Program-made: the position numbers and the translations under genes
Shown: positions 23,894-60,976 of the stretch, one piece after another
How the letters are laid out: every line of letters starts with the position of its first letter
Numbering within the stretch: position 1 is the stretch's first letter
Notes under the pieces: model-generated
Databases searched by the model: none
The model's input: only the letters and a program-made list of their open reading frames with translations
What the model was told of the DNA's origin: nothing
Virus record (IMG/VR): IMGVR_UViG_3300025889_000115
Coordinates: 30 to 64,029 of that record
Strand: one strand, 5' to 3'
Source of the DNA: a virus
Lineage: Duplodnaviria > Caudoviricetes
DNA: 64,000 nucleotides

Positions 23894-24064
23894 ATGGACA
23901 CACAGGCACAGCTTGAAGCTCATGAGAAAGAATGCGCTATGTTTCGTGAGCTTGTGAACGGCAAACTAGACATGCTGGACAAGCGGATGTGGAGGCTTGA
24001 GGCGATGCTGATGGGCTCGACACTTTGTGTCGTTGCCGCCACTGTCGCTCTGGTGCTTCGGTGA
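23894..24064 (+). CDS. Holin-like small membrane protein (XhlA-like architecture)
   Basis: Own translation: MDTQAQLEAHEKECAMFR...RMWRLE plus a C-terminal TM; 56 aa, GAGG RBS. Confidence 0.6.
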   Translation: MDTQAQLEAHEKECAMFRELVNGKLDMLDKRMWRLEAMLMGSTLCVVAATVALVLR

Positions 24065-24516
24065 TTAGGGCCAGTGTTTTCGCAGTGTCTCTATTGGCTC
24101 TCACGGCCTGTGAAAACATCAACTTCTCAGAGCTTGCCAGCACGTTCAGCGCTGGCGGCGGTGCTATGGGGGCGGCGGTCGTCACAGCCAACCCTGTCAT
24201 TATTGGTGGGGCGGCTGTCGCAAGCGGGGTCACCACAGCGGCGCTAACGCCGGAAACAAATTCAGTAACCGCAGAACAAATAGCCGAGGTTCAGAACCCT
24301 TGGCAAGCCTTGCTGGTAGCCTTTGACCAGCTTCTTGCTCATGCGTTTGAACTTGTTATTGCTATAGGGCTGGCCGTGTTTGCCATTCCTATGCTCATCA
24401 CTTACTTGCTTGGGAGGGTCAAGCAACGTCCAGAGGACGCAAAAGCTATCAGTAACCTTGTAAACAAGATAGGTGAGATGGATGACCCGAAGAGCAAAGG
24501 CAAAGCCAAAAAGTAA
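24061..24516 (+). CDS. Lipoprotein with C-terminal TM (unimolecular spanin candidate)
   Basis: GTG start overlapping the upstream stop; lipobox LTAC; C-terminal ELVIAIGLAVFAIPMLITYLL. Confidence 0.5.
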   Translation: MIRASVFAVSLLALTACENINFSELASTFSAGGGAMGAAVVTANPVIIGGAAVASGVTTAALTPETNSVTAEQIAEVQNPWQALLVAFDQLLAHAFELVIAIGLAVFAIPMLITYLLGRVKQRPEDAKAISNLVNKIGEMDDPKSKGKAKK

Positions 24517-24685
24517 GTCGCGCGTAAACGAGGCCGGTAACTACACCAAGCCCACTATGCGCAAAAGACTTTTCTCCAAAATCAAAGCTGGCGGCAAGGG
24601 CGGCAAGCCAGGCCAATGGTCTGCCCGCAAGGCACAGATGCTTGCAAAGCAGTACAAGGCCAAAGGGGGCGGATACCGCAACTAA
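24482..24685 (+). CDS. Basic protein, DUF5872-like N-terminal half
   Basis: YTKP.MR...KGGKPGQWSARKAQ.LA..YK..GGGY; homolog at 57822. Confidence 0.7.
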   Translation: MTRRAKAKPKSKSRVNEAGNYTKPTMRKRLFSKIKAGGKGGKPGQWSARKAQMLAKQYKAKGGGYRN

Positions 24686-25120
24686 ATGCTGGCAGAAATT
24701 GCTGCCGCAAACGCGGCGTTCGGAATCATCAAGCAGGCCATCAGCAACGGCAAAGAACTTGCCTCTGCTGGCGCGGCTATTGCTCAGTTTGTTGGTGCCA
24801 AAGAAGACCTACAGCGCAAGCTGGACAAGAAGGGCGCAGACAAGACAGACCTTCAGGAGTTCATGGCCCTTGAACAGCTTCGTGAGAAGGAGGAAGAGCT
24901 AAAACAGATGATGATTATCCTCGGCCGGCCGGGGCTCTGGTCAGACTGGCAGAAGTTCCAAGCCAAGGCACGGGTGGCCAGGCGCGAGGCAGAGGCTGCT
25001 GCCATAGCCAAGCGCAAGAAGTACCTAGAGGTGGCAATCATAGCGTTTTTCTTTATACTTGGACTGTTCATCTTGGGTTCGTTACTGGCTTTGGCGTTGC
25101 ATGCAGCGGGCAGATTATAA
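24686..25120 (+). CDS. Coiled-coil protein with C-terminal TM
   Basis: Homolog at 56638..57069. Confidence 0.75.
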   Translation: MLAEIAAANAAFGIIKQAISNGKELASAGAAIAQFVGAKEDLQRKLDKKGADKTDLQEFMALEQLREKEEELKQMMIILGRPGLWSDWQKFQAKARVARREAEAAAIAKRKKYLEVAIIAFFFILGLFILGSLLALALHAAGRL

Positions 25121-25131
25121 CGGTTATTATA

Positions 25132-25392
25132 ATGGCGATGAAGAAATCACAACGCAGCCTCAAGGCTTGGACAAAGCAGAAATGGAGGACTAAGAGTGGC
25201 AAACCGTCCACGCAGGGTCCGAAAGCAACCGGGGAGCGATATCTACCGTCTCGAGCCATTAAAGCCCTCTCACCCCAAGAGTATGCGGCGACCACGAGAG
25301 CCAAGAGGAAGGCTACTAGAGCCGGAAAACAAGTTAGCAAGCAACCAAAACGAATCGCAGCCAAGACCAGAAAGTACAGGAAGGTGAAGTGA
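25132..25392 (+). CDS. Basic protein, DUF5872-like C-terminal half
   Basis: SQRSL..WTKQKW.TK...ERYLP...LSPQE...GKQ; homolog at 58019. Confidence 0.7.
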   Translation: MAMKKSQRSLKAWTKQKWRTKSGKPSTQGPKATGERYLPSRAIKALSPQEYAATTRAKRKATRAGKQVSKQPKRIAAKTRKYRKVK

Positions 25393-25508
25393 TGCCTTAT
25401 TCTAAATACTCCCCAAAGCAAAAGAAGCTGGCGGCAATGGCCAAGCCACGCAAGAAAATCACAGGTGCTGACTTGAAGAAGGCCAGCAAGATGAAGAAGA
25501 AGAAGTAA
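25392..25508 (+). CDS. 38-aa Lys-rich peptide
   Basis: MPYSKYSPKQKKLAAMAKPRKKITGADLKK...; stop/start overlaps at both ends; homolog at 58719. Confidence 0.7.
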   Translation: MPYSKYSPKQKKLAAMAKPRKKITGADLKKASKMKKKK

Positions 25509-25819
25509 TGGCTAAGACTCCGGCATGGCAGCGCAAGGCAGGCAAGAACCCGAAGGGTGGCTTGAACGAGGCTGGCCGTCGCTCTGCCAAGAAGCAGGGC
25601 ATGAACTTGAAACGCCCTGTGAAGAAGGGCGACAACCCACGCAGGGCCAGCTTCCTTGCCCGGATGGGCGGCATGAAGGGACCAGAGCGTGATGCGAAGG
25701 GCAGGCCCACTAGGCTCCTGCTGTCTCTACGGGCATGGGGTGCAAGCAGCAAGGCTGACGCAAAGAAGAAGGCAGCAGCTATATCCAAGCGGAACAAGGC
25801 CAAGAAGTCCAAGAAGTGA
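25508..25819 (+). CDS. Basic protein (DUF6321-like)
   Basis: AWQRKAGKNPKGGLN.AGR...RRASFLARM...LRAWG; near-identical at 58858. Confidence 0.75.
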   Translation: MAKTPAWQRKAGKNPKGGLNEAGRRSAKKQGMNLKRPVKKGDNPRRASFLARMGGMKGPERDAKGRPTRLLLSLRAWGASSKADAKKKAAAISKRNKAKKSKK

Positions 25820-25938
25820 AACCGCGCAACCCGCAAGCCAAGAGCCTGATGAGCAAGCTGTTCAAGCCGCGCGTCGTCAAGCCCAAGAAGGGCAAGGGTA
25901 GCTACTCCAGAAAAAAGAGCCCCGCCGGGAAACCGTAA
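25816..25938 (+). CDS. arfA: ArfA-like alternative ribosome rescue factor (40 aa)
   Basis: GTG start overlapping the upstream TGA; MKPRNPQAKSLMSKLFKPRVVKPKKGKGSYSRKK contains the ArfA LF..RV.K.KKGKGSY.RK signature; conserved at 59169. Confidence 0.72.
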   Translation: MKPRNPQAKSLMSKLFKPRVVKPKKGKGSYSRKKSPAGKP

Positions 25939-25950
25939 ACCCGACGAGGC
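25911..25950 (-). terminator. Rho-independent terminator of minus-strand operon
   Basis: Minus strand GCCTCGTCGGG-loop-CCCGGCGGGGC-TCTTTTTT, with G-U pairs only on minus. Confidence 0.75.
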
Positions 25951-26006
25951 TAAGTGGCTAGGCGGTGATGCCCCCGGCATCATTTGTCCGCTTCGCTAGG
26001 GAGAAA

Positions 26007-26246
26007 CTACTCTATTCGCCAAATCCTGTAGCCCGTACCGTTGGGCTCTTTGCGTGACCGGTACTTCATACCTCTGTGATACATAGCGCCGCGCACCTTC
26101 TCGTAGTCCGATTCTGTGGTTGCCGAAAGGCAATCCCCGACCTCCATCTGGTCAAGTATGTTCCACTTGCCCCGCTGAACGCCCGGCACTGGCAACCCTT
26201 TCTCAAGGAATACTATTACCTGACCGCACTCGTTGCATCTTTGCAC
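26007..26246 (-). CDS. Small putative DNA-binding protein (EKG.P.P...M.VGD...YR.WR family)
   Basis: AAGGAGG + GTG start; paralog of 27668..27991; homolog at 59318. Confidence 0.65.
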   Translation of the reverse strand: MQRCNECGQVIVFLEKGLPVPGVQRGKWNILDQMEVGDCLSATTESDYEKVRGAMYHRGMKYRSRKEPNGTGYRIWRIE

Positions 26247-26394
26247 TACACCCTCCTTGCAAATCATGGCATAGGACGTGGTTGTTCCCATTCGCAATCC
26301 ACGTTCCATCCATGACATAATGGTCCTTGCCGCAGAAAACACAGCTAACCTTTCTCGTGTCTTTCTTCTTGGTTCGCGGCCCTCTTCTCTTCAC
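26203..26394 (-). CDS. Small Cys-containing hypothetical protein
   Basis: CxxCGK.HY...LC...GC; homolog at 59514. Confidence 0.6.
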   Translation of the reverse strand: MKRRGPRTKKKDTRKVSCVFCGKDHYVMDGTWIANGNNHVLCHDLQGGCSAKMQRVRSGNSIP

Positions 26395-26548
26395 GCTGGG
26401 CCTCCAGTCCTGCTTTAAGGAAGCGCTCGGCCATAAAGAGAAGCTGAGTTGAGTTCATGTCCCTCCAGTGAGACACGCCCTCTATGCTAACCAGCAACCC
26501 GTCTGGCCGAGGCACTACCAAGATTGACTTAGAATGGGATGTCGTCAT
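26345..26548 (-). CDS. Hypothetical protein
   Basis: ILVVPRP.G.LVSIEG conserved at 59647. Confidence 0.65.
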   Translation of the reverse strand: MTTSHSKSILVVPRPDGLLVSIEGVSHWRDMNSTQLLFMAERFLKAGLEAQREEKRAANQEERHEKG

Positions 26549-26861
26549 CCAGGTTCAGCTTTGACTTACGCGCAGTCTCCTGCACACCAGCCGCCTCTGC
26601 CACTTGCTTGAAGCCATCCTGAGACACGTCAGCAGCCACGCTGTCGGTGTTGGTGTACTCGACAGGCTGCTCGACTTTCAGCGTGATGCTACCGTCGTCG
26701 TTCTCGTACACGCGCACAGAATACTGCACGTCATGCCTGAGGTGCACGTCAGCAGGCGCACCCTCCTTGTACGGCGTCCACTTGCTGTTGCCGTACTTGG
26801 CCGCGCCCTTGTCGTTGGGCCACGCCCGGAACTGGGTGATGTTCTTCCATTTTGTTGCCAT
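26529..26861 (-). CDS. Single-stranded DNA-binding-like protein
   Basis: C-terminal DDDIPF SSB tail; follows the annealing protein gene. Confidence 0.7.
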   Translation of the reverse strand: MATKWKNITQFRAWPNDKGAAKYGNSKWTPYKEGAPADVHLRHDVQYSVRVYENDDGSITLKVEQPVEYTNTDSVAADVSQDGFKQVAEAAGVQETARKSKLNLDDDIPF

Positions 26862-26863
26862 TG

Positions 26864-27520
26864 TTAGCCTCCTAAGCTCTTCTGGCGTTGCTTGAACAGG
26901 TTAAGGATGGTTTCCGCACGTTCAGGGTTGCGTTTCTTGAGGTCCATAATCTGATGCCGGTTCTCGACAAACAGGTTATCAACACCGCCGGCCACCTCAA
27001 TCTTCTCCAGCCTACTCTTCATCTGAACGTATAGCTGACGGTCAGCGTCGTCATAGGCATCGGACGGCGTCTCAACAGGGGATGGAGGGTTCCCACCGGA
27101 GTCGCCGCCCGAACTGGATGTTTCCAAATTCTGCTGCTTTCTCGGCACAGCCTCCATTTCATTAGCACTGGCGTACTCACCACCGGACAGTCCGATGCTT
27201 GCCAGCGCTCTGCCAATGGCTGAGGTTTCACAGTTCTCCAAGGCGCTAGTCTTGTTGACGTTGCCCTGTCCTCTGATTTCCTCGGCCATTCCTGAGCCGA
27301 TTGGGTAACCACTATCGCCTGTAATTGTCGCTTTGACAACCACACGATGCCCATCGTCCACAAGAATTTCAGTTTCAACGCCGCAATCAAGGCCGAACAC
27401 GGTCCTGAATGCCTCCATGCGATGCACAACTTGGGTGTATTTCTTGCCACCTCGCTGTGCGATGCCGTGGGTCTTATGCAATTCGGAGACCAGCCCCATT
27501 GCATCCATTATCTTACTCAT
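26864..27520 (-). CDS. Single-strand annealing protein (Rad52/Sak-like)
   Basis: K.Y..V..R..AFR, G.AEE and ALENCETSAIGRALA motifs. Confidence 0.75.
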   Translation of the reverse strand: MSKIMDAMGLVSELHKTHGIAQRGGKKYTQVVHRMEAFRTVFGLDCGVETEILVDDGHRVVVKATITGDSGYPIGSGMAEEIRGQGNVNKTSALENCETSAIGRALASIGLSGGEYASANEMEAVPRKQQNLETSSSGGDSGGNPPSPVETPSDAYDDADRQLYVQMKSRLEKIEVAGGVDNLFVENRHQIMDLKKRNPERAETILNLFKQRQKSLGG

Positions 27521-27668
27521 CCTTTACCTTTCCTTTGTGCAAGTGGTCTGCCATAAGGTGCATGAAGACAGTCCAAGCCGCCTTCATGTCTAGGAAGTCT
27601 TGCTCGAGCGCCGTGACACAGCGCTCAAGCTCATCCAGCCTCTGCTGGCGTTCTTCCTCCTCCGACAT
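27513..27668 (-). CDS. Small coiled-coil protein
   Basis: Own translation ...DMKAAWTVFMHLMADHLHKGKV; same C-terminus at 60812..60976. Confidence 0.65.
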   Translation of the reverse strand: MSEEEERQQRLDELERCVTALEQDFLDMKAAWTVFMHLMADHLHKGKVKDE

Positions 27669-33463: not shown

Positions 33464-34231
33464 TTAGTGTGTGATGAATGCGACGGGCTTTGAAGCTTGC
33501 CAGCACAAGCCACAAGCGCCGCATGATGGGGCCAGCGTTTCCTCGCCTTTCTTGGCAAGCTGGCCGGTGGTCTTGCTGATTTGCGTCGGACAGGTGAAAG
33601 CCTGTTTAGACGCCAGCAAGTCTTGGGTGCGTTCATCGTCTGCCGACAATGCCGCAAAACTGTCATTGAATGAGCCAGAGAACCGGACAGCCCACCGAAT
33701 GCCGCATTCCCGGCGCAAGGTGGCCAGAGCTTGGCCTATGGCCCGCTCTTGGCTGTCAACAGCGTCTGGTTGATTGGCCGTGTATCCGTATACATGCAGC
33801 GCCGGGAACATGCCGAGCCATTTGGCCCATTGCGCGACATAGGCGACGGAATAGAAGTCGCCAAGGACATGCAAGCGCACTAAAAAGCCATTCGGGTGCT
33901 TGGCTTGGTAATGGGCAAGGTCTGATTCTATTTGCTGCAGCAAAGCATCGTCCGCCTTGTACCGTGTCGCGTTCATCATGTTATTGCCATAGCAATCATT
34001 CCAATGGGCGCAAGAGCGCGGGCAGGTGGCGCGTTCTTCCAGTGTCAAAGTGAAGATGGGAAAGCCAGACAGCTTGCCCTTGGTTACACGCTTGCCAAGC
34101 TTGGCGTTGGTGCTGGCTTTAATTGCCCGCTCGGTCTTGGCCATACCATCGGCCACGCTCTTAGCCCGCAAGTCATGGTAAACGCTACGTCCGGCCATTA
34201 CGGCCATTTCAGTCTTGGTTAATTGTTTCAT
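33464..34231 (-). CDS. GP88-like Cys-rich protein (radical-SAM-like fold)
   Basis: True start ATG 34231 with GGAGGG RBS; TCP.SC.....CY, RLHVLGDF, YGYT, CP...C..C.LCW. Confidence 0.7.
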   Translation of the reverse strand: MKQLTKTEMAVMAGRSVYHDLRAKSVADGMAKTERAIKASTNAKLGKRVTKGKLSGFPIFTLTLEERATCPRSCAHWNDCYGNNMMNATRYKADDALLQQIESDLAHYQAKHPNGFLVRLHVLGDFYSVAYVAQWAKWLGMFPALHVYGYTANQPDAVDSQERAIGQALATLRRECGIRWAVRFSGSFNDSFAALSADDERTQDLLASKQAFTCPTQISKTTGQLAKKGEETLAPSCGACGLCWQASKPVAFITH

Positions 34232-34265
34232 CGCTTTGCCCTCCAGCACGATTGAACATGATTCC

Positions 34266-34294
34266 CATATGGCGCATTGGTTGCGCCTAGTCAA
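34266..34294 (-). promoter_or_regulatory. Early promoter with palindromic operator in spacer
   Basis: TTGACT-17 bp-CATATG-like -10; the spacer holds the perfect inverted repeat GGCGCA-N5-TGCGCC (34271-34287). Confidence 0.55.
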
Positions 34295-34368
34295 TAGCAA
34301 AAAGCACGGCAAAGTAAAAAAAAGACACAGGCATGTTGTGAGCGTGTATATACTAAAGCATGACGATG

Positions 34369-34404
34369 GATGGTTGCGATGATGGTTGCGATGATGGTTG
34401 GTTG
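34369..34404. repeat. 12-bp tandem repeat GATGGTTGCGAT (two exact copies + one partial)
   Basis: Read directly in the early/late intergenic region. Confidence 0.85.
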
Positions 34405-34467
34405 TGCCTGTCAGTAAACACAGAGAAGACACATCCACACGCGGCAATGTATATATGTGGCATTTAT

Positions 34468-34516
34468 GCAACAGTGTTGCCCTGGCGCAACAGTGACATA
34501 TCCGCAACAGTGTTGC
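34468..34516. promoter_or_regulatory. Array of GCAACAGTGTTGC palindromes upstream of terS
   Basis: Copies at 34468 and 34504, partial copy at 34487. Confidence 0.6.
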
Positions 34517-34636
34517 ATCGCGGCCACAGGCAGGGGGGGATGTTTGGAGCCCGACCACCCCCAGCGCGCGGGGCCACTCTGTATATGTGTTAACTGACCT
34601 CTGCACACTCACACATCACTCACACTCGGAGGAACC

Positions 34637-35017: not shown

Positions 35018-35175
35018 TGAAATGTCCTAATTGCGAAACAGGAATGATACATGGCGGGGACCACGATGACGAAGACATGAACGGGCGTGGTTACATAGCT
35101 AGCAATCTAATTTGCCCTGACTGCGATACATTCATGCTTATTTACACGCCAATAGAGGACTCAGATGGACGTTAA
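35017..35175 (+). CDS. Small Zn-finger protein between terS and terL
   Basis: Own translation MKCPNC...GGDHD...NLICPDC; 52 aa. Confidence 0.7.
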   Translation: MKCPNCETGMIHGGDHDDEDMNGRGYIASNLICPDCDTFMLIYTPIEDSDGR

Positions 35176-36451
35176 GATTCCCTACAAGCCTCGCGCCTTA
35201 CAGGCAGAGATGCACAAGGAGTTGAAGAGATGGAATGTGTTGGTGATGCACCGCCGCTTCGGCAAGACGGTGTGGGCAGTGAACCAGCTAATCAAGACGA
35301 CGCTGACCTGCCCGTTGCCTCGACCGAGGACGGCTTTTGTAGCTCCTACCTTTGCTCAGGCGAAGCGAATAGCGTGGGACTACGTCAAGTTTTACGCGGG
35401 CGTGATTCCAGGCGTGACCTTTAACGAGACAGAACTGCGGGCTGACTTTCCGAATGGTGGCAGGATTATGTTGCTGTCTGCTGAGAACCCTGATGCCCTT
35501 CGAGGAATATATTTGGATGAGTGTGTCTTCGATGAGTTCGGGATGCAGAACCCAAGGGTGTGGGGGGAGGTTGTGAGACCGGCCTTGTCTGACAGGCAGG
35601 GGTCGGCATGTTTTTTGGGAACCCCGGCGGGCCACAACCATTTCCATGATTTGCTAGAGACGGCCAAGAGTCAGTTGGCAGAGAACAGCAGCGATTGGTA
35701 TTTTAAGATTTGCAAGGCGAGTGAGACGGGCATCGTCAGGCCGGAGGAATTGGAAGCGGCTCAGGTGCAGATGACGCCGGAGCAGTACGAGCAAGAATAC
35801 GAGTGTTCGTTCACAGCGGCTATTATTGGTGCGTATTACGGCAAGCTGCTGACAGATGCAGATGACAATGGCCGTATAACGCGAGTGCCATATGACCCGG
35901 CCTATCCTGTGCATACGGCCTGGGACTTGGGCATTAACGACTCGACAGCCATTTGGTTTGCGCAGGTCTTCCGTGGCGGTGCAGTTAATATAATAGATTA
36001 TTATGAGAGTAGTGGTGTGGGGCTGGACCACTACGCTGATGTGCTGAACCGCAAGGAGTACACCTATGGGGACCATCTGGCACCGCATGACATCGAAGTG
36101 CGGGAGCTAGGCTCCGGCAAGTCACGGCTTGAGACTGCGTATTCGCTAGGTCTGAGGTTTCGTGTTATACCTAAGATGAAGGTCGCAGATGGCATTAACG
36201 CAGCGCGTATGTTAATACCTAAATGCTATTTTGACCGCGACAAGTGCGGCGAAGGCTTGGAGATGCTCCGGCAGTACAGGCAGGAATGGGATGAGAAGCG
36301 TAAGATTTTTAGAGACCATCCGCGACATGACTATACGAGCCATGCTTCGGATGCTTTCCGCTATCTCGCGACTGGCTTGGAGAACCGAGAGGTTATGCGA
36401 AAGCCTCCACAGCAGGTTGCGCAAAGCGAATACAACCCCTTCACGCTATAG
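35165..36451 (+). CDS. terL: Terminase large subunit
   Basis: Walker A HRRFGKT, APTFAQAK, Walker B FDE, nuclease WDLG. Confidence 0.96.
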   Translation: MDVKIPYKPRALQAEMHKELKRWNVLVMHRRFGKTVWAVNQLIKTTLTCPLPRPRTAFVAPTFAQAKRIAWDYVKFYAGVIPGVTFNETELRADFPNGGRIMLLSAENPDALRGIYLDECVFDEFGMQNPRVWGEVVRPALSDRQGSACFLGTPAGHNHFHDLLETAKSQLAENSSDWYFKICKASETGIVRPEELEAAQVQMTPEQYEQEYECSFTAAIIGAYYGKLLTDADDNGRITRVPYDPAYPVHTAWDLGINDSTAIWFAQVFRGGAVNIIDYYESSGVGLDHYADVLNRKEYTYGDHLAPHDIEVRELGSGKSRLETAYSLGLRFRVIPKMKVADGINAARMLIPKCYFDRDKCGEGLEMLRQYRQEWDEKRKIFRDHPRHDYTSHASDAFRYLATGLENREVMRKPPQQVAQSEYNPFTL

Positions 36452-58279: not shown

Positions 58280-58719
58280 ATCTAGTGAAACTGTGTGACG
58301 ACCTCAAAGCCGACGAGGGGAGTGTCAACGAGATTTACATTTGCCCGGCAGGGCATCCCACTTTTGGCGTAGGCCATATGATTACCAAGAAAGACCCTGA
58401 ACATGGTGAGCCAGTTGGCACTAGCATTAGCGATGAACGGGTACGGGAAGCCTTCGAGGCAGACATCACCATCACGCTACAAGATTGTGAGAAACTATAT
58501 CCTGACTTCGCTGACTTGCCAGAAGAGGTGCAGCTAATCATCGCCAACATGCTCTTCAACATGGGCTTGCCGCGCCTGTCCAAGTTCCGGGGCATGAAGG
58601 CTGCGGTGGACGACCGTGACTGGAACCGCGCAGCGGATGAGATGGTGGACAGTTTGTGGTATAACCAAGTGACAGCGCGGGCAGACCGTCTGGTGCAACG
58701 TATGAAAGAGGTAGTGTGA
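58276..58719 (+). CDS. Endolysin, T4-type lysozyme (GH24)
   Basis: DEG...IY.C..G.PT.GVGH, NM.FNMG, AA.EM.DS.W..Q...RA. Confidence 0.9.
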   Translation: MNLVKLCDDLKADEGSVNEIYICPAGHPTFGVGHMITKKDPEHGEPVGTSISDERVREAFEADITITLQDCEKLYPDFADLPEEVQLIIANMLFNMGLPRLSKFRGMKAAVDDRDWNRAADEMVDSLWYNQVTARADRLVQRMKEVV

Positions 58720-58865
58720 TGCCTGGTGCAAAGTATTCATCGAAGCAGAAAAAGATGGCGGCTGTAGCTTCGCCGCGTAACAAGATTACTGGTGCTGACT
58801 TCGCAAAGCTGCGAGGCAAGAAGAAGCCGACCATGGGTGCGGCCAAGAAGAAGCGCCGTGGCTAA
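58719..58865 (+). CDS. 48-aa Lys-rich peptide
   Basis: KYS.KQKK.AA...KITGAD; homolog of 25392. Confidence 0.7.
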   Translation: MPGAKYSSKQKKMAAVASPRNKITGADFAKLRGKKKPTMGAAKKKRRG

Positions 58866-59169
58866 GACTCCGGCATGGCAGCGCAAGGCTGGCAAGAACC
58901 CGAAGGGTGGCTTGAACGAGGCTGGGCGTCGTTCTGCCAAGAAGCAGGGCATGAACCTCAAGCGTCCTGTGAAGAAGGGCGACAACCCGCGCCGTGCATC
59001 CTTCCTTGCCCGCATGGCTGGAATGAAAGGCCCGGAGCGTGACGCAAAGGGCAAGCCGACCAGGCTCTTGCTCTCTCTACGGGCATGGGGTGCCTCTAGC
59101 AAGGCTGACGCTAGGAAGAAGGCGTCAGGCATATCCAAGCGGAACAAGGCCAAGAAAGCCAGAGCGTGA
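58858..59169 (+). CDS. Basic protein (DUF6321-like)
   Basis: GTG start; homolog of 25508. Confidence 0.75.
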   Translation: MAKTPAWQRKAGKNPKGGLNEAGRRSAKKQGMNLKRPVKKGDNPRRASFLARMAGMKGPERDAKGKPTRLLLSLRAWGASSKADARKKASGISKRNKAKKARA

Positions 59170-59291
59170 TGCCTCGCAACCCGCAAGCCCGCAGCCTGAT
59201 GAGCAAGCTGTTCAAGCCGCGCATCCTCAAGCCCAAGAAGGGCAAGGGTAGTTACTCCCGTAAAAAAGAACCCCGCCGAAGCGGGGCTTAG
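59169..59291 (+). CDS. arfA: ArfA-like alternative ribosome rescue factor (40 aa)
   Basis: MPRNPQARSLMSKLFKPRILKPKKGKGSYSRKKEPRRSGA; TGATG coupling. Confidence 0.72.
   Translation: MPRNPQARSLMSKLFKPRILKPKKGKGSYSRKKEPRRSGA
59262..59288 (-). terminator. Rho-independent terminator of minus-strand operon
   Basis: Minus strand CCCCGC-TTCG-GCGGGG-TTCTTTTTT. Confidence 0.85.
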
Positions 59292-59317
59292 TGGCTAGGT
59301 TACCTAGCTGGGAGGAA

Positions 59318-59551
59318 CTACTCAATTCTCCAAATTCTGTACCCAGTACCGTTAGGTTCCTTGCGTGAGCGGTACTCCATGCCTCTGTACCTCATAGCCG
59401 CGCGAACCTTCTCGAAATCACGCTCGGTTGTCGCAACTAGGCTGTCACCAACCTCCATACCAGAAAGTATATTCCACCTGTCGCGTCTGCCGCCGGGTAT
59501 TGGTATGCCTTTTTCAAGCACCACTTGATTGCACTCTGCGCACTTTTTCAA
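59318..59551 (-). CDS. Small putative DNA-binding protein
   Basis: Homolog of 26007; AGGAGG + TTG start. Confidence 0.65.
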   Translation of the reverse strand: MKKCAECNQVVLEKGIPIPGGRRDRWNILSGMEVGDSLVATTERDFEKVRAAMRYRGMEYRSRKEPNGTGYRIWRIE

Positions 59552-59702
59552 AGCACCCTCCTGTCTGCGTGTCATAGCAAAGCTTATGTCCGTTCCCATT
59601 CGCAACCCACGTTCCATCCATGACATAATGCTCCTTACCGCAGAACTCACAGTTTAATTTCCTTGTGTCTCGGTTCTTGGTTTTCGGTTTTCTTTTCCTC
59701 AC
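59514..59702 (-). CDS. Small Cys-containing protein
   Basis: Homolog of 26203. Confidence 0.6.
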   Translation of the reverse strand: MRKRKPKTKNRDTRKLNCEFCGKEHYVMDGTWVANGNGHKLCYDTQTGGCFEKVRRVQSSGA

Positions 59703-59856
59703 GTTGGGCCTCCAATCCCGCATTGAGGAAGCGCCCGGCCATCCAGAGTAGCTGTGTTGAGTCCATGTCTCTGTAGTAGGACACGCCCTCTATACTAACC
59801 AGCACTCCTTCTGGCCTAGGCACTACCAAGATTTGCTTAGAAGGGGATGTCATCAT
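59647..59856 (-). CDS. Hypothetical protein
   Basis: Homolog of 26345. Confidence 0.65.
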   Translation of the reverse strand: MMTSPSKQILVVPRPEGVLVSIEGVSYYRDMDSTQLLWMAGRFLNAGLEAQREEKKTENQEPRHKEIKL

Positions 59857-60169
59857 CCAAAGACATCTTTGGCTTACGCGCAGTTTCCTGAACGCCAGCC
59901 GCTTCTGCCACCTGTTTGAATCCACCTTGCGAAACGTCGTCAGCTACGCTGTCTGTGCCGGTGTATTCAATAGGCTGTTCGACCTTTAACGTGATGCTGC
60001 CGTCGTCGTTCTCGTACACGCGCACAGAATACTGTACGTCATGCCTGAGATGCACATCCGCTGGCGCACCGTCCTTGTACGGCGTCCACTTGCTGTTGCC
60101 AAACTTGGCAGCACCCTTGTCGTTGGGCCAAGCCCGGAACTGGGTGATTGGTTTCCACTGTCTTGCCAT
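59837..60169 (-). CDS. SSB-like protein
   Basis: DDDIPF tail; homolog of 26529. Confidence 0.7.
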   Translation of the reverse strand: MARQWKPITQFRAWPNDKGAAKFGNSKWTPYKDGAPADVHLRHDVQYSVRVYENDDGSITLKVEQPIEYTGTDSVADDVSQGGFKQVAEAAGVQETARKPKMSLDDDIPF

Positions 60170-60171
60170 GA

Positions 60172-60828
60172 TTAACCTCCAAGGCTCTGTTCGTGCTTTT
60201 GAAATAGGTCAAAGAGCGCCTGCGCACGTTGAGGATTGCGCTTCTTGACATCCATGATGAGGTGCTTGTTCTCAGCGAACAGGTTATGGACACCGCCAAC
60301 CATCTTTATGTTCTCCAGCCTAGACTTCACCTGAACGTATAGATGACGGTCAGATTCTTCATGGGCATCAGGCGACGTCTCGACAGGGGATGGAGGGTTC
60401 CCGCTGGAGCCGCCGCCTGAACTGGATGTCTCCAAGTTCTGCTGCTTCCTCGGCACAGCCTCCATTTCATTAGCACTGGCATACTCACCACCGGACAGAC
60501 CGATGCTTGCCAGCGCCCTACCAATGGCAGATGTCTCACAGTTTTCCAAGGCGCTTGTCTTGTTGACGTTGCCTTGGCCCCTGATTTCCTCTGCCATCCC
60601 TGAGCCAACGATGTGACCATTATGGTCTGTGACAACGGCTTTTACAACCACACGCTGCCCGTCGTCCACGAGAATCTCCGTGTCAACGCCGCACTCAAGG
60701 CCGAAGACGGTTCGGAACGCCTCCATGCGGTGGACAACCTGGGTGTACTTCTTGCCACCCCGTTGCGCTATCCCGTGGGATTTGTGCAATTCGGAGACAA
60801 GCCCCATTGCATCAATCATCTTGCTCAT
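60172..60828 (-). CDS. Single-strand annealing protein (Rad52/Sak-like)
   Basis: Homolog of 26864. Confidence 0.75.
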   Translation of the reverse strand: MSKMIDAMGLVSELHKSHGIAQRGGKKYTQVVHRMEAFRTVFGLECGVDTEILVDDGQRVVVKAVVTDHNGHIVGSGMAEEIRGQGNVNKTSALENCETSAIGRALASIGLSGGEYASANEMEAVPRKQQNLETSSSGGGSSGNPPSPVETSPDAHEESDRHLYVQVKSRLENIKMVGGVHNLFAENKHLIMDVKKRNPQRAQALFDLFQKHEQSLGG

Positions 60829-60976
60829 CTGTTACCTTTCCTTTGTGCAAATGGTCTGCCATCAAGTGCATGAAGACAGTCCAAGCCGCCTTCATGTCAC
60901 TCATCTCTGCCTGTAGCTCGGCTAGCCTTTTCTCAAGCCGGTCTACCTGCTGTTGTAGTTCACCAACGTCAGGCAT
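60812..60976 (-). CDS. Small coiled-coil protein
   Basis: Homolog of 27513. Confidence 0.65.
   Translation of the reverse strand: MPDVGELQQQVDRLEKRLAELQAEMSDMKAAWTVFMHLMADHLHKGKVTDEQDD

Follow-up and report, generated by a model that had tools for sequence, protein, structure and literature searches.

The 64,000-nucleotide stretch of viral DNA analysed here (the window, positions 1-64000), which is nearly the whole of one 64,029-bp IMG/VR virus record, contains two copies of a 40-codon open reading frame (ORF) that encodes a short homologue of the ribosome rescue factor ArfA. The gene is a real ArfA homologue; its reality, homology, architecture and distribution are demonstrated by the results below. 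With a probability of roughly 0.55, judged from its sequence, the phage protein would be a working rescue factor that frees stalled ribosomes. The original prediction, made from the nucleotide sequence alone, had placed the ORF in two genomes, coupled by its start codon to the stop of the gene upstream and at the end of the late operon. Direct reading of the sequence bears this out for both copies, with the ORFs and their upstream genes located as follows:

25816..25938, plus strand: ArfA-like ORF, copy A; 40 amino acids, GTG start, TAA stop at 25936-25938
25508..25819, plus strand: upstream gene of copy A; 103 amino acids, DUF6321 (PF19846, 75.1 bits; phrog_4689)
59169..59291, plus strand: ArfA-like ORF, copy B; 40 amino acids, ATG start, TAG stop at 59289-59291
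58858..59169, plus strand: upstream DUF6321-type gene of copy B, read from the sequence; its GTG start is inferred as the counterpart of the ATG of the copy A gene

The window holds two diverged, collinear sibling phage genomes of the HTVC010P podovirus type, joined head to tail, in which 1-30764 and 35481-64000 are connected by blocks with a nucleotide identity of 70-89%. Around the ORFs, the identity is 79% (25389-27590 compared with 58716-60898), and the two ArfA-like proteins are 77% identical. The start codon of copy A, GTG at 25816, overlaps with the TGA (25817-25819) that ends its upstream DUF6321 gene, and in copy B the ATG at 59169 and the upstream TGA (59167-59169) have one base, A, in common. 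Each copy is the last gene of the rightward late operon of its genome and is followed by convergent genes on the minus strand.

A search with a profile hidden Markov model (HMM), which the original prediction had itself named as a test that could refute it, places both proteins in the Pfam family ArfA (PF03889). At a gathering threshold of 25.5 bits, copy A scores 42.3 bits (E 5e-11) and copy B 39.3 bits (E 4e-10), and when all six frames of the 64,029-bp record are searched, these are the only two sites, with 40.4 and 37.5 bits. Among the chains of the PDB, phmmer matched only E. coli ArfA (six distinct sequences, E ~2e-3), aligning residues 11-35 of the query without gaps to ArfA residues 20-44. 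In a profile-profile comparison (hhalign) of 20 members of the short family with eight gammaproteobacterial ArfA proteins, the match has a probability of 98.1% and an E value of 7e-14 over 32 gapless columns. This alignment extends to N5, which is paired with Asn14 of E. coli ArfA, so that the predicted gapless correspondence, including the asparagine, was recovered. Four other Lys/Arg-rich mini-proteins, from the cassette of basic proteins described below, have no ArfA match in Pfam at E<=1, and neither these four nor a 144-residue protein (24686-25117) match the short-family HMM at E<=10. Hence, lysine-rich composition is not the cause of the ArfA match. All 14 relatives found in the protein database at E<=1e-3 have 37-54 residues and carry a precomputed PF03889 assignment. 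NCBIfam gave no meaningful match for the ArfA-like protein, and its matches in PHROGs are only the families 20887 and 37108, both of unknown function.

The substitution pattern of the ORF fits purifying selection in its frame. The ratio of non-synonymous to synonymous differences (pN/pS) is 0.16-0.52 in all eight pairwise comparisons among copy A, copy B and close viral relatives, and 0.59-2.5 in the other two plus-strand frames for the same pairs. In RNA libraries from two studies, contigs lie over the copy A ORF, which is weak evidence of its transcription, because DNA can occur in RNA libraries. One of them, a 5,437-nt contig from run X15, lies over 25769-26400. Another, 456 nt long and obtained from salt-marsh RNA (run X16), aligns to the window solely at 25825-25962, where there is one difference, and its flanks are unlike those of the window on either side. 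These flanks suggest that the gene stands in another context in a relative and that it moves as a small module among related phages. Positions 25807-25940 are not covered in two further RNA-library runs, X17 and X18, which bears on neither side.

These data make it very improbable that the ORF is non-functional, that is, a frame open by chance or a decaying relic at the end of the operon that is held open by an overlapping terminator. Such a reading could draw on the very short length of the ORF, on its weak start (GTG in copy A, and no strong Shine-Dalgarno sequence seen by direct reading), and on a nonsense codon in one relative: in the close relative L009 (5998-6090), a stop replaces the Tyr codon of KGKGSY, owing to either a natural knock-out or an error in assembly. 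However, the frame has stayed open in two diverged copies, with pN/pS below 1, both score above the Pfam cut-off, and there are hundreds of relatives. A long minus-strand ORF does lie over copy A (25459-25983), but it has no counterpart over copy B, where the minus-strand ORF ends at 59186.

The gapless profile alignment allows a residue-by-residue comparison with E. coli ArfA, in which the following positions correspond:

Phage N5: E. coli ArfA Asn14
Phage K9 (R in copy B): E. coli ArfA Ala18
Phage S10: E. coli ArfA Leu19
Phage L11: E. coli ArfA position 20
Phage L15 and F16: E. coli ArfA Leu24 and Phe25
Phage KKGKGSY tail: identical motif in E. coli ArfA

According to the portions of Demo et al. 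(2017) available to us, the ArfA tail sits in the mRNA tunnel, and truncation of the protein is tolerated at Asn47 and not after Met40. The same source describes contacts of ArfA Leu19, Leu24 and Phe25 with Trp319 of RF2 and a minidomain of residues 2-16 that is folded only in the active state and whose folding activates RF2. Ala18 packs on Ile11 and C1914 in the core of this N-terminal minidomain, and the A18T variant abolishes release while RF2 binding is kept (Demo et al. 2017). The phage protein resembles E. coli ArfA in the KKGKGSY-x-RK tail, the Leu-Phe pair and an Asn at equal spacing, in addition to passing the PF03889 threshold. Its last residue, 40, corresponds to E. coli residue 49 and thus lies past Asn47, the shortest functional truncation reported. 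Therefore, at the level of sequence, the basic tail is long enough. Of the patch that contacts RF2 Trp319, Leu24 and Phe25 are kept as L15 and F16, Leu19 is replaced by S10, and an invariant leucine, L11, stands at position 20; the SAR11 forms described below have Lys-Tyr at 24/25.

The N-terminal part is different. As had been predicted, the profile alignment gives no counterpart of ArfA residues 1-9, and the position of Ala18 is occupied by K9 in copy A and by R in copy B. The short family begins at the equivalent of residue 10, so that the minidomain (residues 2-16 with the Ala18/Ile11 core) is lacking as E. coli ArfA has it, while Ile11 is invariant in all eight gamma-type ArfA sequences. 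Judging from these positions, the N-terminal ten residues of the short family cannot form the E. coli minidomain. They are nevertheless constrained, since N5, L11 and (nearly) A8 are conserved across the family. Because the minidomain core is absent, we assign the phage gene on its sequence features to a distinct short subfamily of ArfA homologues, and not to orthodox ArfA. It also differs from the ArfA (YhdL) of E. coli and other beta- and gammaproteobacteria in being phage-borne, and it has an in-frame stop ten codons past the Tyr, whereas E. coli arfA is described, in the accessible part of PMC10107115, as a longer ORF that is expressed from truncated non-stop mRNA.

The same short architecture was found in bacterial chromosomes. 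Among bacterial contigs, with one genome per species, 403 stretches matched and 182 of them encode a relative, of which the best 80 were kept. By record title, 65 of these 80 belong to Pelagibacter/Pelagibacterales, five to other Alphaproteobacteria (L083, L137, L140, L141 and L157) and ten to Gammaproteobacteria. All 69 alphaproteobacterial ORFs with a start codon have at most 55 residues, with a median of 38. For the gamma-type ORFs, start codons were chosen by their nearness to the start of the model and are unreliable, so that only the length counts of alpha-type and viral ORFs are used here. The short alphaproteobacterial layout comprises 36-46 residues (loci L083-L151), with 24 residues before KGKGS in 41 of the 69 ORFs, equal to copy A, and with about 9-11 residues (median 9) between this motif and an own stop codon. 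The closest cellular relatives, L083 and L137, start with MKPRNP, as does the phage gene. Their surroundings are those of housekeeping genes: the SAR11 loci L134 and L106 have one synteny, with genes for a response-regulator-type protein, a PfkB kinase, an endonuclease III family protein, YkuD and a YggS-type protein around an ORF of 38-40 residues, and L083 is flanked by genes for PRPP synthetase, SDR, TauE and a PALP enzyme. The short ArfA-like genes are therefore cellular and not part of prophages.

To describe the distribution in one order, that of the complete SAR11 genome G001, 81 Pelagibacterales genomes were used (G001, G004-G083). PF03889, a model centred on gamma- and betaproteobacteria, has matches in 34 of the 81; 32 of these lie in frames of 33-70 residues, 13 are above the cut-off, and two, in frames of 366 residues, are probably spurious. 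RF-1-domain genes number two (RF1 and RF2) in 78 of the 81 genomes, one in three genomes and three in none; an ArfB-like third RF-1-domain gene was thus not found in these 81 genomes, and likewise not in G001-G003. Published surveys, as far as their accessible parts go, list no ArfA in Alphaproteobacteria, and a 2024 survey reports arfA in 0 of 2,376 alphaproteobacterial genomes (PMC11633108, available in part). A description of the short alphaproteobacterial form was not found in the literature searched, whose coverage left out most subscription journals, and this clade has apparently been overlooked so far.

The phage gene and the short alphaproteobacterial genes are alike in the 24 residues before KGKGS, in their own stop codon and in the N-terminal motif K/R-R-N-P-x-A-K/R-x-L. 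Unlike the phage gene, the chromosomal genes stand in housekeeping contexts and never beside the basic-protein cassette, and the SAR11 forms have Lys-Tyr where the phage protein has Leu-Phe. The original prediction had called the phage protein pre-truncated, in the sense of a shortening specific to the phage. The in-frame TAA and TAG soon after the active core are indeed there, with the end at the equivalent of residue 49, but the view of a phage-specific shortening has to be given up: the same layout is the normal chromosomal form in SAR11 and other Alphaproteobacteria. In consequence, the phage most likely carries a host-type short gene unchanged, and by its resemblance to these chromosomal genes it was probably captured from a host of SAR11 or another alphaproteobacterial type.

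If the short ArfA is a working rescue factor, it would be made together with the late proteins through translational coupling to the upstream gene. The basic tail (KKGKGSY-x-RKK) would enter the mRNA channel, empty in ribosomes that have stalled at the 3' ends of broken messages, while the Leu-Phe segment would help to keep host RF2 in the A site, leading to hydrolysis of the peptidyl-tRNA and recycling of the ribosome. With a stop codon of its own, the gene should be expressed whether or not tmRNA fails. The outcome would be extra, untagged rescue capacity for the infected cell while mRNA is being degraded. Ribosome binding, RF2 dependence, timing and the benefit for the phage are, in this scheme, what we infer from the homology and the position of the gene. 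A predicted complex of the phage peptide with RF2 of the alphaproteobacterial metagenome-assembled genome that holds the closest cellular relative (score 0.03, mark 0.32) counts neither way.

Several observations weigh against a role as rescue factor. The PF03889 alignment spans only profile positions 18-42 of 44, and the stop in L009 interrupts the tail of a close relative. The short family is without the residues upstream of the Asp-Asn motif, including the Ile11 position and Thr7/Lys8, which contact h44, it has K/R at the Ala18 position, and the equivalent of Leu19 is Ser in the phage protein. Given the missing Ile11 position and the K/R at Ala18, activation of RF2 cannot proceed exactly as in E. 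coli ArfA. For every member of the family, moreover, ribosome binding, RF2 dependence and the protein product itself are predictions. The same features could be taken to indicate a channel plug, the dominant-negative mimic that the original prediction had offered as an alternative. Such a peptide would fill the empty mRNA channel and the A site without being able to activate RF2 and would block tmRNA-SmpB or other rescue, either shutting off the host or keeping phage proteins from being tagged. The missing minidomain core would then correspond to the E. coli A18T variant, which binds RF2 without release, and the basic tail is fully conserved. However, genes of the same build stand among the housekeeping genes of free-living Alphaproteobacteria in whose genomes no ArfB was found, which would be difficult to explain if the peptide did nothing but inhibit rescue; by this comparison, the cellular genes favour a working factor over a dominant-negative mimic. 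The phage gene is also co-transcribed with late genes, whose translation would presumably suffer from a block of rescue as well, and the conservation of N5, A8 and L11 suggests a functional rather than a decayed N-terminal segment. We therefore consider a plug quite improbable.

The surroundings of the gene in viral genomes also have to be set against a plain rescue role. In IMG/VR, at least 587 stretches matched, of which at least 215 encode a relative; the best 80 of these were kept as viral loci. The survey of related phages that the original prediction had proposed thus found the ORF to be widespread. A start codon is present in 78 of the viral ORFs; 44 of these have at most 55 residues, six have 56-99 and 28 have 100 or more. 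The longer ones include fusions: in 27 of the 80 viral loci (for example L010, L012, L021, L030, L036, L043 and L050) the ArfA-like module is fused in frame to a phrog_17747 domain, and in 11 further loci this domain is encoded nearby and unfused. A phrog_14910 protein is found near the ArfA-like ORF in 34 of the 80 loci and a peptide of the 39-residue type in seven. At least one cassette protein is near in 39 of the 80 viral loci, compared with 0 of the 80 cellular loci, and in 41 of the viral loci there is none within the fetched flanks. Since these fusions and neighbours are absent from the cellular loci, the role of the module in phages may differ from its cellular role. The corresponding basic proteins upstream of copy A are:

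24473..24685, plus strand: 70-residue basic protein, phrog_17747 (E 2.8e-36), the domain found fused to the ArfA-like module in other viral loci
25132..25392, plus strand: 86-residue basic protein, phrog_14910, a frequent neighbour of viral ArfA-like genes
25389..25508, plus strand: 39-residue basic peptide of the cassette, with gp23 of Pelagibacter phage HTVC034P as counterpart

Among PDB sequences, nothing significant was found for the 86- and 70-residue proteins. An Atlas search with the 86-residue protein returned only unnamed viral clusters, the nearest named family being DUF5872 with a score of 0.90, which is a lead only; the earlier label "DUF5872-like" for a cassette protein found no Pfam support at E<=1. 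In HTVC034P, gp23-gp21 (L164:2380-2922), namely a peptide like the 39-residue one, a phrog_17747 domain and a phrog_14910 protein, close the late operon and are all annotated as hypothetical; the ArfA-like gene is absent beside this cassette. Some fusions carry an extra N-terminal module with ~34% identity to the N-terminus of the annotated head maturation protease of AP22-like Acinetobacter phages (AP22, NC_017984.1, L163:2501-2779). It looks like a promiscuous small module.

Because of this recurrent linkage, a sizeable though unlikely rival has to be kept, in which the phage copy acts with the cassette and not in plain rescue. The basic mini-proteins would have a common non-rescue role, in binding nucleic acid in the capsid, in packaging or ejection, or in joint action on the ribosome, and the ArfA-like part would serve as an RNA- or DNA-binding tail. 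The 27 fusions to phrog_17747, the 11 further loci with that domain nearby and the 34 with phrog_14910 nearby are in agreement with this idea, as are the lack of such neighbours in all 80 cellular loci, the position of the cassette at the end of the structural and lysis operon both here and in HTVC034P, and the resemblance of the N-terminal module of some fusions to the AP22 protease. On the other hand, 41 of the 80 viral loci have none of these neighbours in the fetched flanks, 44 of the 78 ORFs stand alone with at most 55 residues, and conservation is not limited to the basic tail but includes the Asn and Leu-Phe positions shared with cellular ArfA, while phrog_17747 and phrog_14910 have no Pfam or PDB match. 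A related and doubtful proposal makes the ArfA-like peptide the ribosome-docking component of a set of basic mini-proteins peculiar to phages (phrog_17747, phrog_14910, DUF6321 and the 39-residue peptide) that would act jointly on host ribosomes. In the fusions, the tail would thread into the empty mRNA channel and the attached domain would be set at the mRNA entry site of stalled ribosomes; the phage would then have a virus-made module, built on a minimal ArfA without minidomain, for reprogramming rescue or re-use of ribosomes in late infection.

Three hairpins are found at the 3' ends of the ORFs:

25917..25951, minus strand: hairpin over the last codons and the stop of copy A; -43 kcal/mol on the minus strand, z -2.4, with the TAA in the loop
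59269..59288, minus strand: hairpin in the last codons of copy B; 8 pairs, 6 of them G-C, loop of 4, then CTTTTTT; z -4.6 and -4.8
25961..25992, plus strand: another hairpin, shortly past copy A and with UUUGU after it; it may be a weak terminator of the late operon on the plus strand and is absent from the list of the consensus scan

In both copies the codons past SYSRKK enter the first hairpin, and in copy B the TAG follows directly after the stem. The copy B hairpin was flagged as terminator-like in the minus-strand scan. That of copy A is not listed by the consensus scan; its loop is ~10 nt by eye, compared with a limit of 8 in the scan, and the U-run that follows it on the minus strand is the complement of 25911-25916. 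The simplest reading is that both are terminators of the convergent leftward early operon that overlap the tail of the ArfA-like gene. The AAA AAA lysine codons (25911-25916 and 59262-59267) double as the U-run of the opposite-strand terminator and thus serve both coding and termination. The position of the hairpins at the 3' end recalls the hairpin of E. coli arfA, but here in-frame stops are present. Non-stop control of the arfA type, with an ORF that lacks a usable stop and a message cut at an internal hairpin, was considered and set aside as unsupported: each copy ends in an in-frame stop, a U-run on the plus strand is missing, and terminators of the convergent operons account for the hairpins. 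Processing of the message at the hairpin is possible.

The idea of a phage ArfA is not new, as two cultured phages already have one annotated in print. The pelagiphage HTVC027P gp30 is reported to carry a PF03889 domain and to show high expression both early, at 3 h of infection, and late, at 12-15 h (PMC12753301, seen in part). Its sequence, read from the record, has 58 residues with an NP-x-AK...KPKKG-x-GS core. It is like the window protein in this core and in PF03889, but has a 24-residue N-terminal extension, adjoins the small terminase gene and belongs to a lytic HTVC023P-type phage. Gene g10 of Citromicrobium phage vB_CbaS-RXM is named ArfA in one sentence of the text available. Both papers suggest one role, ribosome rescue favouring phage protein synthesis; in their accessible parts they stay at the level of annotation, without a functional test or a remark on the short architecture. 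A functional study of a phage ArfA was not found in the literature searched, most subscription journals being outside its coverage. A tblastn search of 50,697 phage records with the 40-residue phage protein and a 38-residue SAR11 form returned nothing at E<=10, probably owing to the low-complexity filter and the shortness of the queries, since HTVC027P is among these records and encodes a relative. BrfA of Bacillus subtilis and ArfT of Francisella, two small proteins that rescue ribosomes with the help of a release factor and place a basic tail in the mRNA channel, are cited here solely as functional analogues. As outlined in a review available in part, they indicate that differing N-terminal parts are compatible with recruitment of RF2.

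The GC content of the window is ~53%, and the TerL protein (35165-36448) has 51-52% identity to TerL of HTVC010P-type Pelagibacter podoviruses. Pelagibacter phage HTVC034P (35,450 bp) has the same layout, with a rightward late operon that ends in small basic proteins and a convergent leftward early operon. A megablast search of phage records with positions 24000-27000 gave 0 matches, and no tRNA or tmRNA gene was found in the window. Integrase and prophage status were considered for a 381-residue minus-strand protein (33464-34609) and rejected, as this protein matches Pfam GP88 and not an integrase.

If the form of 38-40 residues is active, it would be the smallest release-factor-dependent rescue factor known, and activation of RF2 would not need the minidomain on which E. 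coli ArfA depends. It would also provide SAR11 with a rescue factor where one seemed to be missing, given that surveys found ArfA in none of the 2,376 Alphaproteobacteria and that no ArfB-like gene was found in the 81 Pelagibacterales genomes. The gene is present in hundreds of environmental phages, often fused to other basic domains. In view of this wide occurrence and of the fusions, viruses may commonly take over ribosome rescue, or use it against host RNases that cleave mRNA.

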